Notes: generated by a model from the letters alone, not told the origin. Counted from the first letter of the stretch, positions 75 through 13,641 are shown. The stretch: DNA of 24,000 nucleotides from Candidatus Methylomicrobium oryzae (GCF_016745425.1 NZ_JAERVK010000004.1:221721-245720); one strand, 5' to 3'. A program made the numbers and translations.

Positions 75-281
75 ATGGGTGAAGTTACCGAACTTTTTCT
101 GGTCATGCTGGTACTCGCGGCGGGCGCGTTTGCGCCACTCGGCTATTTTATCTATAAATTTTCGCAAACCAATGCGAAACCCTTCGGCGAAACCGAACCG
201 CATGGCGATAGCCCTTCGGTGATCAACGATTTTGCCGAAAAGGCCATCGGCCTGATCAAAGGCCTTGTCCGAGGAAAATAA
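75..281 (+). CDS. small hypothetical membrane protein (68 aa)
   Basis: ATG at 75 is preceded by GAGGAGG at 64-70. There is one hydrophobic helix (LFLVMLVLAAGAFAPLGYFIY). Codon usage resembles neighbouring genes. No family recognised. Confidence 0.4.
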   Translation: MGEVTELFLVMLVLAAGAFAPLGYFIYKFSQTNAKPFGETEPHGDSPSVINDFAEKAIGLIKGLVRGK

Positions 282-336
282 CAGCCGCCACTGCCTTAAC
301 GGCATTTTCAACAATCGTAACCTGCTTGCGAACCAA

Positions 337-523: not shown

Positions 524-613
524 TGTAGGGTACGCTGTGCGTACCATGGGAGGGGGTGAAAAGGTACGCACTCGGCAACTGCTCCCTGCGTTGCTCTAAC
601 TCCTGCCTCCCTG
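524..613. repeat. left arm of perfect 90-bp inverted repeat
   Basis: TGTAGGGTACGCTGTGCGTACCATGGGAGGGGGTGAAAAGGTACGCACTCGGCAACTGCTCCCTGCGTTGCTCTAACTCCTGCCTCCCTG. Contains a sub-terminal hairpin GGTACGC-TGT-GCGTACC at 529-545. Confidence 0.9.
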
Positions 614-665
614 TAGTCGTCGGCAATGGCTCTGTCCATAGACCCCCCTTGTGGTGGCATTGCTC

Positions 666-809
666 TCGATCGCGTGTTCCCGACGCGATCTATCTTCCCC
701 CTCCGTGGGGTCGTCGATCGCGTGTTCCCGACGCGATCTATCTTTCCCCTCCGTGGGGTCGTCGATCGCGTGTTCCCGACGCGCTCTACCTTGTCTTCCC
801 TTGGGCTCG
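666..809 (+). repeat. tandem repeat family A, 3 x 48 bp
   Basis: The unit is TCGATCGCGTGTTCCCGACGCGATCTATCTTCCCCCTCCGTGGGGTCG at 666-713. Copy 714-761 differs at 1 nt and copy 762-809 is diverged in its 3' half. Each unit carries an 8-bp stem GATCGCGT/ACGCGATC with loop GTTCCCG. Confidence 0.9.
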
Positions 810-852
810 TACCGCCTGCATGAATGCCATGGAGGGCGCGAATGCAGCGATT

Positions 853-996
853 GCACGACGGCTGGGATGCAGGAGGGAGGACAACGCAGGGAGCAGTTGT
901 CGACGACGGCAGGGAGGCAGGAGGTAGGGCAACGCAGGGAGCAGTTGCCGACGACGGCAGGGAGGCAGGAGTTAGAGCAACGCAGGGAGCAGTTGC
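853..996 (+). repeat. tandem repeat family B, 3 x 48 bp
   Basis: The unit is CGACGACGGCAGGGAGGCAGGAGGTAGGGCAACGCAGGGAGCAGTTGC at 901-948. Copy 949-996 differs at 2 nt and copy 853-900 at about 7 nt. The last copy lies inside the right inverted-repeat arm, and its reverse complement recurs at 575-622. Confidence 0.85.
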
Positions 997-1047
997 CGAG
1001 TGCGTACCTTTTCACCCCCTCCCATGGTACGCACAGCGTACCCTACA
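958..1047. repeat. right arm of perfect 90-bp inverted repeat
   Basis: Exact reverse complement of 524-613. The mirrored sub-terminal hairpin lies at 1026-1042. Confidence 0.9.
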
Positions 1048-1143
1048 GCTTAGCTCCCGACGGCATTTCCTCGTCCTCGCCGGAAACTCCATCAAGTATG
1101 CCGAACCGAAATCGCCCGGCAGGCGGCAGCCCTTCATTCCGAT

Positions 1144-2349
1144 TCAGGAAATCCCGAAGCTTCCGCAGAACTCGAGCAGGGACTCCAGATTCATCGGCTT
1201 GGCGATAAAATAGCCTTGCGCCAGATCGCACCTCATCGCCTTGAGCGCACTCCAGTCCCGCTCGGTCTCGACGCCCTCGGCGGTGCACTTGATGCGGAGC
1301 TTGTGCGCCAGATCGATGCTCGATTGCACTATGATGCGTAGCGACTCATTATCGGAAAAGCTCCTCACGAAGGTCTGATCGATTTTCAGCTCGCTGAAAG
1401 CGATGCGCGAAATCTGCTGCATGCTCGAATAACCGGTGCCGTAATCGTCTATCGACAGCCCGAACCCGCGCATGCGCAGCCGCGCCAGATTTTCCAGCGC
1501 GTGTGCCACATCGGTCATAGCCGCGGTTTCGGTCACCTCCAGAATAAAGTAACGGGGATCGACAGCCGCCTCGTGCATGACCTGGGTAATCCGGTTCGCC
1601 AGCGCCGTATCGGTCAACGAAGTCAGGGAAATATTGACAGCCATACTCAGCTTATGGCCGCTTTCATGCAATTGCCGACAAGCGGATGCGGCTTTTTTCA
1701 AGATAGTGAAGGTCAAGTCGTCGAGTTTGCCGTTACGCTCGAGTACTGCGATAAACGCATAGGGCCCGATCACGCCATGCTCCGGATGGATCCAGCGGGC
1801 CAGTGCCTCCACACCTTTGATTTGGCCGCTGGCGATGTTTACTTTCGGCTGGTAAAACGGCTCGAACTGATTTTTCCGCAGACCGTCCAGAATATCTTCC
1901 AAAGTAAAACTTGCCGGCCCAGAGGGCGCCACCCTCTCCTGTTTCGGCCAGACGGCCTCATGCTGGGCTATCAGCGTTTGCAGGCGAGACCGGGTTACTG
2001 GTTTTTCTATCGCGCCCAGCAATCGGATTCCGTAGGCACGCGCCATTTCCTCCACCGAAGCGATTAAGGCGGAATCCAAGGCGCTCATGATGATCAGCGA
2101 AATATCGGCGTAATGACTCCCCATATGTCGGAAATATTCCATCCCATCCATTTCCGGCATTTCCAGGTCGCTGAGCACAATGTCGACCGCAGGCGCGGAT
2201 TGCGCCTGCAAAATCTCCAGCGCCTGTTTACCGTCTCCCGCCTGCCGTACCGACTTCGCCCCCATGGACAACAGCATGTCGGCCAGCGTTTCGCGTTGGA
2301 AGTCGTCATCCTCGACTACGAGAAAATGCAATTCATCCGGCTTCATCAT
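1144..2349 (-). CDS. response regulator with EAL-domain c-di-GMP phosphodiesterase output (REC-EAL)
   Basis: N-terminal receiver domain (LVVEDDDF, VLSDLEMPEMDG). The EAL domain has intact EALARW, EVTE, DDYGTGYSS, KIDQTFV, EGVET and QGYFIAKP motifs. AAGGAAAG lies upstream of ATGATG. The gene starts 18 nt after the kinase stop. Confidence 0.9.
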   Translation of the reverse strand: MMKPDELHFLVVEDDDFQRETLADMLLSMGAKSVRQAGDGKQALEILQAQSAPAVDIVLSDLEMPEMDGMEYFRHMGSHYADISLIIMSALDSALIASVEEMARAYGIRLLGAIEKPVTRSRLQTLIAQHEAVWPKQERVAPSGPASFTLEDILDGLRKNQFEPFYQPKVNIASGQIKGVEALARWIHPEHGVIGPYAFIAVLERNGKLDDLTFTILKKAASACRQLHESGHKLSMAVNISLTSLTDTALANRITQVMHEAAVDPRYFILEVTETAAMTDVAHALENLARLRMRGFGLSIDDYGTGYSSMQQISRIAFSELKIDQTFVRSFSDNESLRIIVQSSIDLAHKLRIKCTAEGVETERDWSALKAMRCDLAQGYFIAKPMNLESLLEFCGSFGIS

Positions 2350-10663: not shown

Positions 10664-11908
10664 TTAGATGAAGGTTGGGATCAGAGGACCGTCGATTTGG
10701 ACCAGTTGCTTGTTGCCATTTTCGTCGTGGAAGAACAGCAAGCCAGCGAAACGGCTATCTGGGTCATAGATCAAGTCAGCCAGACGATATACTTCCCAAG
10801 CTGCGTCAGACGCAGTAACTTGGATAGTTCTGGTTTGGCCTGGAGCCAGTGGGCTGTTGTCGCTGACAGTCAGACCTTCTGGAGCCAACAAGTCATCTGG
10901 GTAGCCAGTGGTGTCTTCAGTTACGTTAGCATCCAAGAAACGAACGCCAGCAGTGTTGAATTCACCCAAACGGATCGCAGAGTCACCGTTGTTGGTTACA
11001 GTCAGAGTCATGTTCATTGAACGGCCTGGTACACGGTAGGTAGCGTCGTCAATTTTAACGCTAACAGTTGGTGTAGGCAGATCAAGAGGCTTCATACCAC
11101 GCAACAAACCTGCTTGCAGAGGAGTGGTGATAGGATACTCAGAGTTGGTTTGTGCCATAGTGAAAGCAACGATACCGATCGCGCCAGCACCGAAAGCCAA
11201 AGCAACCTTTCTGTCAGTTGCAGTGATCAGAGTGTCACCTTTACCAGCGTCCATAGCGATTTGACGTGGAACGAACATTGGCTTCTTCATCCAGTAAACC
11301 ATCCAAGCCACACCGAAAGCATACCAGAAAGCATGCCAGAAGTAGGTGTTGCTCAGGTTATAGGTTTCCAGATCAACAGTTTGGCCAGTCAAAGTGGTGA
11401 TTGGGTTGGTGAATTGGCTCATAGAACCTTCAACAGTTACCCATTTGCCAGGACCGATGATTGGACCACCGCCTTCAACGTTCATCATAGTGTGAACGTG
11501 CCAGTCGCCTGGACGGCGTGCTTTCAACAGAACTTTGAACTCATAGGTTTCGCCCAGTTCCAGAGAAACCGAACGTGGAACCAATTGACCACCGATCCAA
11601 GATCCAGCACGGATAAATACTGGGCCTGGAATACCGATGTTCAAGAAAGCGCTTTCTGGCTTGTCAACAGTTTCCGGCCAACCTGAGAATACCAGGAATT
11701 TACCAGAAATCGTCATCGTGTCGTTGACTTTAACAACTTCTTTTGACCAGTTCAGATCGTACCAGTGAATAGTACGCATACGCATGAAAGCCGCTTGAGA
11801 CTTTTCACCGTGTGCGGATGCCGCTGGCGTATAGAACATGGCTGCTGCAACTGTCAGCAACAGTGCGACAAAGGACAACTTTGCTACCTTGTCTTTAATT
11901 AACTTCAT
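10664..11908 (-). CDS. pmoB: particulate methane monooxygenase subunit B
   Basis: A signal peptide is followed by HGEKSQAAFMRMRTIHWYD (the N-terminal His ligand) and GDWHVHTMMNVEGGGP (the HxH ligands). The start is set at the ATG at 11908 (MKLIKDK), which has GAGGAGGA upstream and gives 414 aa. The ORF-track start at 11971 is an extension. Confidence 0.95.
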   Translation of the reverse strand: MKLIKDKVAKLSFVALLLTVAAAMFYTPAASAHGEKSQAAFMRMRTIHWYDLNWSKEVVKVNDTMTISGKFLVFSGWPETVDKPESAFLNIGIPGPVFIRAGSWIGGQLVPRSVSLELGETYEFKVLLKARRPGDWHVHTMMNVEGGGPIIGPGKWVTVEGSMSQFTNPITTLTGQTVDLETYNLSNTYFWHAFWYAFGVAWMVYWMKKPMFVPRQIAMDAGKGDTLITATDRKVALAFGAGAIGIVAFTMAQTNSEYPITTPLQAGLLRGMKPLDLPTPTVSVKIDDATYRVPGRSMNMTLTVTNNGDSAIRLGEFNTAGVRFLDANVTEDTTGYPDDLLAPEGLTVSDNSPLAPGQTRTIQVTASDAAWEVYRLADLIYDPDSRFAGLLFFHDENGNKQLVQIDGPLIPTFI

Positions 11909-12022
11909 ATATCCTCCTCTAATAATAGAGAATCTATTTATTCTTGAGTATCCAGTCGATAAATTGTTCATTTATCTACTAGCCATTTATTTATTGTGTT
12001 ACTAGCTCAGAATCCAAAAGGA

Positions 12023-12766
12023 TTAGGTGCTTTGGGTAAATGCGGTGCTGCCGAACCATTTACCGAAGAAGTGCCACAAGAAGTAGATGATGATACTCAC
12101 GAAACCAGAGAAGAATGCAGATACTGGAGCTACGTCCTTACCGAAAGTTCTCAGAGTACCTTTTTCAACCATCCGGATGTATTCTGGAGTACCAGTTCTT
12201 ACGTAGTGGTAACCTTGCAAGTCAGCCAGGGTCATTACCATGCCGTTGTATTCAACTGGCACGTGCAATGGTGCGATGACAGGCCAGTTGCCAGGATAGA
12301 ACAACAGACCGTAAGCCAAGCCGCCCAGAACAGCAGTCAACTGCATGCTGTTAGACAGCATCAGAATGACGTCCAGAACGATTGCGCCTGGAACGAACTG
12401 TGATGGGAATACAAAGTTAACTGGGAAGTAAGTCCATCCCCAGAAGTTGAAGTATCTGTTAACCCATTCGCCGAACAACAGACCGAGAACGGCCAGCATT
12501 GCACCGAATGGCAGTTTCCAGCGATACCAAAGAACTGCTTGAACAGCAGCTGGGAATGTAATACCGACGATTGGCAATACAGTAACCCACAGACGACGGT
12601 CTTTCCAGTCAGTCCAGAAATCCCAGTCACCACCAGTCAACATGAAGTGAACGTGGTAGCCACCAAGAATGATGAAAAACAAAGTGAAGCAGATCATCCA
12701 GTCGAACGTGCGTGAAACTTTTACAGCTTCGGCACGTGAACGTACAGCTGATTGAGATGCGCTCAT
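12023..12766 (-). CDS. pmoA: particulate methane monooxygenase subunit A
   Basis: 247 aa, collinear with my recollection of Methylococcus capsulatus PmoA (GDWDFWTDWKDRRLWVTV, YFNFWGWTYFP, LHVPVEYNG, VRTGTPEYIRMVEKGTLRTFGKDVAPVSAFFS). TAGGAGGT lies upstream. Confidence 0.95.
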   Translation of the reverse strand: MSASQSAVRSRAEAVKVSRTFDWMICFTLFFIILGGYHVHFMLTGGDWDFWTDWKDRRLWVTVLPIVGITFPAAVQAVLWYRWKLPFGAMLAVLGLLFGEWVNRYFNFWGWTYFPVNFVFPSQFVPGAIVLDVILMLSNSMQLTAVLGGLAYGLLFYPGNWPVIAPLHVPVEYNGMVMTLADLQGYHYVRTGTPEYIRMVEKGTLRTFGKDVAPVSAFFSGFVSIIIYFLWHFFGKWFGSTAFTQST

Positions 12767-12888
12767 TAGCTTACCTCCTAAAGGGTTTAAAATTATTTTT
12801 ATTTCTATCTTCTCTTTGCCGTTTCGCCCATTTGGAACATGAGCGAAACAGCCAGGAGATAGTTATTTAAGGCTTTTAACCTAAGCGA

Positions 12889-13641
12889 TTAAGCCAGGTC
12901 TTTCTTCAGCAATTTTGTAATTGCTTGAACTTCGATGCTCAGAACGCCCAGTGCACCCAGAGCGGCCCATCCGAAGAATACGAAGCCGTAGTGCAGAGGA
13001 GCAACGAACAACTCTTCCATGAACCAGAAAGTGTGACCCCACTCGTTCAAACCAACGTTTGGCAGAATCATGAATGGACCAACAACAGATACCATGTATT
13101 GAATGGAGAAACCATTGGCATAAGTAGGCAGTCTGGTTTTTGCGTACAGCAAAGAAGCACCACCGGTGATGATGTAGATTGGGTAGCTCAGATAGAACTC
13201 GATAATGTGACTTGGAGTGAAGTCAGTATCGCGAACGATCGTTTGGTGCCAAGTGCCATCTTGCTCGGTGAAGTAGCTAGCGCCGAAGTAAATTGCAACA
13301 GAGTAGCAAACCAACCAAGTCCAGTGAGTGAAGTGTCTTCTCAGCTCTTCTCTTGGAGTGATTGACATGACTTTACGGTCACGGGTCTTCCAGATGTAGC
13401 CCCACAGGATACCTGCAGTGGATACTTCCAATACGAATTCGATATACAGGAAGTTCATCCAGTATGTTTCGAACTCAGGCGCGAAAGAGTCAAGACCAGC
13501 GGACCAGCCATAAACACCTTCGTACCAACGAACCCAAGCGTAGAACACGTTGTACAGTGCGACGCCCAGGAACAGATTTCTTTTATTTAACAGCGGTGCT
13601 TCCGCAGCATCAGCTTTCACTGATTCAGTTGTAGCTGCCAT
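12889..13641 (-). CDS. pmoC: particulate methane monooxygenase subunit C
   Basis: 250 aa with RDTDFTPSHIIEFYLSYPIY and NEWGHTFWFMEELFVAPLHYGF, which are conserved PmoC metal-site regions. TAGGAGGT lies upstream. It is the first gene in the C-A-B order. Confidence 0.95.
   Translation of the reverse strand: MAATTESVKADAAEAPLLNKRNLFLGVALYNVFYAWVRWYEGVYGWSAGLDSFAPEFETYWMNFLYIEFVLEVSTAGILWGYIWKTRDRKVMSITPREELRRHFTHWTWLVCYSVAIYFGASYFTEQDGTWHQTIVRDTDFTPSHIIEFYLSYPIYIITGGASLLYAKTRLPTYANGFSIQYMVSVVGPFMILPNVGLNEWGHTFWFMEELFVAPLHYGFVFFGWAALGALGVLSIEVQAITKLLKKDLA

Follow-up and report, generated by a model that had tools for sequence, protein, structure and literature searches.

For the BIMEs of E. coli, binding of IHF, gyrase and Pol I has been described, and RAYTs are HUH/Y1 enzymes that act on single-stranded hairpin DNA. 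REPINs are said, in the 2011 work of Bertels and Rainey, to be inverted doublets of GTAG-type REPs mobilised by RAYTs. According to Di Nocera et al. (2013, PMC3733652), GTAG REPs occur as head-head dimers and in clusters, are located mainly between genes that are convergent or co-directional, and are linked with RAYTs. They are also found inside genes, notably uvrA and RNA helicases, and a second REP super-family (CGTC) has no dedicated transposase (PMC3733652). The features of the locus described below fit this picture, and we therefore file it among the known REP-type repeats.

The locus occupies positions 524-1047 of a 24-kb stretch of DNA, which we call the window. It is very probably a REPIN/BIME-like mosaic of two short palindromic repeat families, lying between convergent genes and presumably served by a RAYT acting in trans. 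An earlier, sequence-only reading of the window had drawn attention to it as a long palindrome, and several explanations offered there are weighed below against this one.

Anatomy and genomic setting of the locus

Over 90 nt, the sequence at 524-613 matches the reverse complement of 958-1047 without a mismatch, and a repeat search extends imperfect arms to 524-649 and 922-1047 (126 nt, 90%). Both termini carry the hairpin GGTACGC-TGT-GCGTACC, at 529-545 and 1026-1042, and the element has no target-site duplication, the sequences on either side being ...ACCCGT and GCTTAG.... Folded as RNA, either strand is predicted to form one giant hairpin (-381 and -356 kcal/mol, z = -22 and -21). The exact 90-bp inverted repeat, the inward continuation of pairing with mismatches, the terminal hairpins and the missing target-site duplication had all been reported in the sequence-only reading, which had also proposed RNA folding of both strands as a check. 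Its palindrome was thus correctly drawn, but it overlooked the make-up of the locus from 48-nt units and the fact that only part of the population has the perfect inverted repeat.

The locus is built of modules that recur roughly every 48 nt. The interior (572-998) holds seven to eight copies of a 48-nt unit composed of two hairpins, H1 and H2, and the 90-nt perfect repeat consists of the terminal block plus most of one such unit, present at both ends. The left terminal block (524-571) opens with a REP that we call REP3 (524-545, plus strand), formed by T-GTAG-G with a 7-bp stem GGTACGC/GCGTACC and a TGT loop. It continues with a 17-nt REPIN spacer, ATGGGAGGGGGTGAAAA (546-562, plus strand), and ends with GGTACGCAC (563-571, plus strand), the 5' half of an inner REP3 hairpin that pairs with 1000-1008. 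In REP doublets from metagenomes the complete second REP reads GGTACGCACAGCGTACCCTACA. The unit arrays start directly after GGTACGCAC, and its junction with TCGG is identical in all haplotypes and in a second element, L084, which is taken up below.

The first unit (572-619, plus strand) is canonical, with an H1 stem GCAAC/GTTGC, a degenerate H2 and the C-rich strand up. It scores 67 bits (E = 4.5e-16) against R1, a covariance model of the unit, contains the exact 18-mer core of the family, and is a D2-type unit in inverted orientation, namely an inverted copy of the unit at 951-998. An aberrant unit follows (620-665, plus strand), with an H1-type stem GCAATG/CATTGC and extra sequence in its loop (CTGTCCATAGACCCCCCTTGTGGTGG), resembling an insert in L077. 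The D1 block comprises three tandem 48-nt variant units (666-809, plus strand; R1 scores of 21, 15.6 and 12.5 bits), numbering two to four copies among haplotypes, in which H1 reads GATCGCGT-GTTCCCG-ACGCGATC and H2 reads CCCC-TCCG-TGGGG. Unit orientation switches in a 45-nt centre (810-854), where an H2-type stem CTGCAT/ATGCAG has an inverted GGA hairpin (GCCATGGAGGGC) in its loop; this centre is homologous to that of the L084 element. The D2 block is made of three tandem canonical units (855-998, minus strand; 54, 39 and 65 bits), present as two copies in the alternative haplotypes; read on the plus strand, the block is rich in G and its hairpin loops carry GGA. The inverted terminal block (999-1047) begins with an inner half-hairpin, GTGCGTACC, and a spacer (999-1025, minus strand), together an inverted copy of 546-571 that is exchanged for GAGGAGCAAATCTCTGCCCATGCAGTC in haplotypes L002, L004, L006 and L007, and closes with the right terminal REP3 (1026-1047, minus strand), the exact inverted copy of 524-545. 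Model R1 finds four strong and three weak units in the 24 kb, all inside the locus and none outside it, and about 34 kb of contiguous sequence holds this one cluster only.

Several modules sit within the loops of other hairpins: the GGA hairpin in the H2 stem at 810-854, the arrays in the REP3 loop (563-571/999-1008), an extra stretch of about 96 nt in L001, and an unrelated insert inside the REP3 loop of L222. This nesting suggests that hairpin loops are preferred sites of insertion or rearrangement. Two simpler descriptions of the locus were rejected. ORFs at 556-927 (plus strand), 596-1015 (minus strand) and 651-1208 (plus strand) span it, only as five of the six unit frames lack stop codons, and the length differences between haplotypes (8, 48 and 58 nt) are not all multiples of three, which disposes of a coding tandem repeat; a CRISPR-like array would have spacers, and here the units abut.

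The locus lies between a 68-aa ORF (76-282, plus strand) and a REC-EAL gene (1144-2349, minus strand) that converge upon it. The REC-EAL ORF ends at 1144, 96 nt from position 1047, so both the distance and the convergent setting given in the sequence-only reading hold. The 68-aa ORF has no Pfam hit; its size and its position convergent with REC-EAL are kept in all syntenic relatives examined, and it probably encodes a genuine small protein of partly hydrophobic character. A consensus scan picks out, immediately downstream of the REC-EAL stop codon and ahead of the element, a terminator-like hairpin followed by a T-rich tail (1113-1125, minus strand), which may limit read-through of REC-EAL into the palindrome. 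Pfam scans and contig annotation revealed no mobility gene in the window, and a RAYT probe had no match there, in agreement with the earlier claim; the ORFs scanned are all housekeeping genes (PAS kinase, ThiF, GroES/EL, pmoCAB, methionine-salvage enzymes and efflux pumps). The pmoCAB-type particulate methane monooxygenase operon (10664-13641, minus strand; annotated as AMO and Monooxygenase_B in L006) fits the match of the EAL protein, which is 100% identical to a protein of Methylomicrobium sp. RS1.

In syntenic relatives, whose EAL protein is 73-85% identical, the gene order ThiF / PAS-kinase / REC-EAL / 68-aa ORF / lactamase-B / TENA is kept. Their spacer at this point measures only 129-229 nt, contains neither REP nor unit, and is too diverged to align across the insertion point. 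These repeat-free spacers indicate that the element is a lineage-specific gain, not a conserved functional region.

The 48-nt unit family

The unit has the consensus cTCGG-CAACTGCTCCCTGCGTTG-CTCTACCTCC-TGCATCCATGCA-GTCGT, and in its many copies the flanks are unrelated right up to the consensus edges. Its 18-nt core, CAACTGCTCCCTGCGTTG, occurs in at least 118 stretches of one-genome-per-species contigs, where about 17 would be expected by chance. The matches listed are nearly all gammaproteobacterial, with several different contigs per genome, and come from Methylobacter, Methylovulum and Methylomicrobium, from Lysobacterales including Rhodanobacter and Dokdonella, from Acidiferrobacterales, and from Ectothiorhodospiraceae and Chromatiales. 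The unit is therefore spread over several gammaproteobacterial orders, at about 90% identity. On phage carriage, only 3 and 5 viral contigs were matched. Among searchable papers, no match by sequence string was obtained for the unit or for the terminal REP.

Both hairpin stems covary. In the stem of the H2 hairpin (CUGCAUGGAUGCAG), compensatory changes are seen as CG, GC and AU at one pair and as UA, CG and GC at the next, with almost no unpaired cells. A wider model-based alignment, which was fitted to the model and so leans towards structure, has changes on both sides at 14 of 15 pairs. The loops keep TCC on the consensus strand, that is, GGA on the other. The unit is bipartite, and elsewhere its H1 and H2 modules also repeat apart from one another, as 29-nt and 19-nt modules with the corresponding periods.

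Copies outside the window enter coding sequences in frame. Units lie at two different positions inside HrpA (L124:7169-7219 and L075:703-753) and inside UvrA (L111:4775-4825), and two tandem units lie in frame in the linker of a hybrid sensor kinase (L118:3716-3814). Compared with solved homologues, the insertions in HrpA (L124) and UvrA (L111) are clean 17-residue indels. The usual reading frame of the unit encodes DDCMDAGGRATQGAVAE, and five of the six consensus frames are free of stop codons. Such RPE-like in-frame insertion characterises the family elsewhere; the copies in the window are all intergenic.

No RAYT was detected near the units in the 118 loci listed; the probe matched only in L011, where an unrelated IS200-like gene lies at a distance of 3 kb from a unit. 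Likewise, all-against-all clustering of 2,622 ORFs from these loci yielded no gene family enriched beside the units, and returned common paralogue families only (sensor kinases, ABC transporters, NRPS, CheW and ParA).

Two further sites deserve mention. At L047:3880-5919, a pabC-like gene for a class IV aminotransferase and a YceG/MltG gene are joined by intervening stop-free unit arrays into a single 680-aa ORF, and this fused ORF is likely to be a source of annotation errors. At an orthologous Methylobacter locus, the unit is found at two positions within another palindromic repeat, cccctcacccaaccctctccctctggagaggg (L026:4538-4588 and L102:6417-6467; also L012, L061, L089 and L125). Each insertion into cccctcacccaaccctctccctctggagaggg falls at a TC dinucleotide and adds exactly 48 nt, which is evidence for independent insertions of the unit and for TC as a possible target.

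Taken at its boldest, the family could be a RAYT-independent, multi-order element that inserts preferentially in hairpin loops (that of REP3, that of H2 in the centre, and the point between H1 and H2) and enters essential genes in frame, with GGA in both loops while the stems covary. It would spread by an unrecognised mechanism targeting hairpins in single-stranded DNA, or would owe its retention to GGA hairpins that interact with some universal host factor, for instance CsrA. We put this forward tentatively, as a doubtful proposition.

The GGA loops also raise the question of a regulatory RNA: transcription of the G-rich strands would produce GGA-loop hairpins that bind CsrA as in CsrB or RsmZ, so that the locus would titrate CsrA/RsmA or serve as some other structured regulator. 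GGA is enriched and strand-asymmetric, occurring 12 times per half on the G-rich strand and once on the other, with about 3.4 expected, and it is found in the loops of H1 and H2 alike, whose stems covary. The GGA loops at 855-998 (plus strand) and 572-809 (minus strand) are constant, including CAGGGAGC, (C)ATGGA(T)G and CGGGAAC, and the loop contexts CAUGGAUG, ACAGGGAUGU and CAGGGAGC appear to resemble the published CsrA/RsmE binding consensus. However, the G-rich halves are on different strands and point away from the 45-nt centre, where there is no promoter-like site, and the locus has no Rfam match at the gathering threshold or at E <= 10. The orientation of units relative to co-directional flanking genes is unbiased (13:8, on crude gene calls in which many 'intragenic' assignments are spurious short ORFs), and units are found inside coding sequences and at hundreds of unrelated sites. 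Furthermore, the orthologous loci of relatives lack the element, and its module content varies freely in the population. We consider an RNA sponge quite unlikely on these grounds. The sequence-only reading had allowed for a structured or dsRNA-forming 3' region or a terminator, a suggestion left without support by the lack of an Rfam match and of a promoter, the presence of both unit orientations in one locus, and the absence of conservation in relatives; the Rfam search proposed there returned nothing relevant even at E = 10.

Terminal REPs, RAYTs and the haplotypes of the locus

The REPIN/BIME-like reading starts from the ends of the element. The termini, TGTAGGGTACGCTG[T/C]GCGTACC, combine a GTAG head with a short stem, which is the definition of GTAG-type REPs: each is a short imperfect palindrome, within the 20-40 nt of this type, with an unpaired 5' GTAG head, reading TGTAGGGTACGCTGTGCGTACC at 524-545 with its inverted copy at 1026-1047. 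None of 100 shuffled sequences contained even two copies of this 22-mer, which excludes chance. In a metagenome scan the 22-mer was found in at least 120 stretches with unrelated flanks, and most of the matches listed are inverted doublets in which a REP, a spacer of 9-90 nt and an inverted REP follow one another, the REPIN arrangement.

The same 22-mer flanks RAYT genes. A probe consisting of the E. coli YafM sequence detected RAYT homologues in 13 of the 120 REP loci listed. All six that were scanned belong to NCBIfam NF047646, 'REP-associated tyrosine transposase', with scores of 180-211 bits against a cutoff of 80, and in four contigs (L175, L151, L224 and L253) the REP lies on both sides of the RAYT gene. 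Contigs bearing both a RAYT and the exact 22-mer of the window are present in four JGI samples that also hold the locus (3300078517, 3300078759, 3300072892 and 3300073104), and the RAYTs of these samples are closely related; none of the best 120 homologues carries the name of RS1. We infer from these associations that the REP ends of the present copy are moved by a RAYT encoded elsewhere and acting in trans. A tandem 'REPtron' cluster is seen in both L169 and L203, with two to three RAYT paralogues packed into about 3 kb and copies of REP3 beside each of them.

Seven metagenome contigs encode an identical EAL protein and, together with the window, provide eight sequences of the locus in four haplotypes of 513-571 nt. 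The haplotype of the window (524 nt) has a perfect terminal inverted repeat of 90 nt and three D1 units. That of L001, L003 and L005 (571 nt) has a perfect repeat of 103 nt and two D1 units; that of L002, L006 and L007 (513 nt) has 14 nt and two D1 units; and that of L004 (515 nt) has 14 nt and four D1 units. A long perfect inverted repeat, of 90 or 103 nt, is accordingly present in four of the eight sequences, and a 14-nt repeat in the other four. The haplotypes differ further in a left insert of about 96 nt and in which right end they carry. Left and right variants occur in all four possible combinations, which implies recombination or recurrent events. The run of G in the spacer of L004 is also altered (equivalent to 546-562; GGGAGGGGGGGGAAAA versus GGGAGGGGGTGAAAA), which could be homopolymer slippage or an assembly error.

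In L002, L004, L006 and L007 the arrays end with ...GCAGTC followed directly by AGCGTACCCTACA, the second half of the inner REP. Since the arrays start after GGTACGCAC and end at AGCGTACCCTACA, they lie inside the loop of the inner REP. The L084 element, from a Methylomicrobium MAG, has the same architecture, including the homologous centre, the junction of GGTACGCAC with TCGG and the 'alternative' right end. It occupies a non-orthologous site between riboflavin-synthesis-like genes, as judged from flanks read by eye. Because the alternative right end is common to L084, which we treated as another genus, it is the older state, in which TGTAGGGTACGCT and CTCGGCAACTGCTCCCTGCGTTG are already found at both ends as inverted blocks. 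As half of the sequences have an inverted repeat of only 14 bp, the perfect palindrome of 90-103 bp is a recent, derived state. Judging by the haplotypes, the perfect arms are best explained by gene conversion between the inverted ends, with the left end as the putative template; converting the stretch between the two blocks in this way would give precisely the perfect repeat of the window. The recent homogenisation envisaged in the sequence-only reading is supported by the existence of haplotypes whose right end is non-palindromic, and with the occurrence of that right end in L084.

These data bear equally on a classical IS-derived MITE, in which the 524 bp would form one unit moved by a DDE transposase recognising terminal inverted repeats. 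Every haplotype has such repeats, of at least 14 nt, a similar composite occupies the non-orthologous L084 site, and the element is absent from relatives. Against this, no target-site duplication is seen, and the termini are GTAG hairpins that occur alone as short REPINs and flank RAYT genes, not genes for DDE transposases. Copies differ in their interior by modules, and no IS with these ends was noticed in about 1.7 Mb of fetched sequence during the non-systematic inspection afforded by the RAYT probe and by ORF clustering of unit loci. An IS-derived MITE, which we rank next after the RNA sponge, is very unlikely. The proposal of a MITE-like non-autonomous element comes nearest among the four made in the sequence-only reading, in that the element is non-autonomous, repeated and absent from the orthologous site of relatives, but its GTAG hairpin ends make it a REP/REPIN mosaic and not an IS-derived MITE with target-site duplications.

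An inverton, switching expression of the flanking genes by homology-driven inversion, is highly improbable. The perfect inverted repeats of 90-103 bp that flank an interior of 344-365 bp in four of the eight sequences are long enough for RecA-dependent inversion. However, all eight sequences, taken as assembled consensus, are collinear with a single interior orientation, and no flipped interior is found among the four palindromic copies. Half of the population has no long inverted repeat, the element contains no internal promoter-like site and has no recombinase gene nearby, and it lies downstream of both flanking genes rather than upstream. The invertible segment suggested earlier is left without support by the common orientation of the four palindromic copies and the lack of a nearby recombinase.

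Finally, an assembly or amplification foldback artefact, also raised in the sequence-only reading, has a negligible probability: perfect long palindromes are a known signature of such artefacts and contig L006 ends near the left edge of the intergenic region, but the palindromic class was assembled independently in three JGI metagenomes (L001, L003 and L005) and a related non-palindromic haplotype in four more assemblies, with identical flanks in all.

A probable mosaic of two repeat families compared with described systems

We propose a general course of events for the REPIN/BIME-like mosaic. Its outer ends are an inverted pair of 22-nt GTAG-type REP hairpins, DNA that RAYTs are thought to mobilise. 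Within the inner REP, the arrays of 48-nt units occupy the loop, bounded by GGTACGCAC and AGCGTACC, and their size changes by whole units, probably through slipped-strand mispairing or unequal recombination. Part of the population would have had its right end overwritten by an inverted copy of the left end, giving rise to the perfect palindrome; the inverted homologous blocks probably served here for gene conversion or a template switch. No product is encoded by the element, for which a dedicated cellular role is improbable; at most, it would exert the generic REP effect of placing stable hairpins at the 3' ends of flanking transcripts.

The palindrome is therefore an ordinary, if unusually elaborate, selfish-repeat feature. 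Recognising this conspicuous 524-bp palindrome as selfish repeats of a known kind guards annotation against reading too much into it, be it an inverton, a regulatory RNA or a CRISPR-like array. The locus also provides a natural example of REP cluster evolution, in which nesting in a hairpin loop, copy-number steps of 48 nt and formation of a palindrome by putative conversion are visible as haplotypes co-existing in one methanotroph population. More generally, the 48-nt unit family may merit a description of its own, being widespread in Gammaproteobacteria, in frame in HrpA and UvrA, and without an associated transposase.

Among described systems, CsrB, RsmY and RsmZ share with the locus many tandem hairpins with GGA loops, GGA being present here in multiple copies in each half. 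In contrast to these RNAs, the locus lacks its own promoter or terminator, an Rfam match and conservation at the orthologous locus; it combines both orientations, and its units have hundreds of dispersed copies, some of them in coding sequences.

The 48-nt family is closer to RPE and to the intragenic GTAG and CGTC REPs (PMC3733652), which are likewise short palindromic repeats lying in frame in conserved genes, including uvrA and an RNA helicase gene, and it resembles the CGTC REPs in having no dedicated transposase nearby. It differs from RPE and intragenic REPs in its bipartite unit and in the intergenic position of every copy in the window, and peptides encoded by the unit (e.g. DDCMDAGGRATQGAVAE) are absent from the list in PMC3733652. 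The locus as a whole resembles the BIMEs of E. coli, which are likewise clusters of REP hairpins that alternate in orientation and are accompanied by further short conserved motifs, vary in module number and lie extragenically at the 3' ends of genes. The sequences are unrelated, however, and the locus has as its modules 48-nt units of two hairpins whose loops are GGA/UCC.

The closest counterparts are the REPINs. The locus shares with them a 5' GTAG head preceding a short hairpin, inverted head-head doublets around a spacer of variable length, many copies amid unrelated flanks, REP-flanked RAYT genes and a site between convergent genes. It departs from them in that about 430 nt from a second repeat family interrupt the loop of the inner REP, and in that the whole left half is duplicated in inverted orientation in some haplotypes, leading to three REP hairpins and a perfect palindrome of 90-103 bp.
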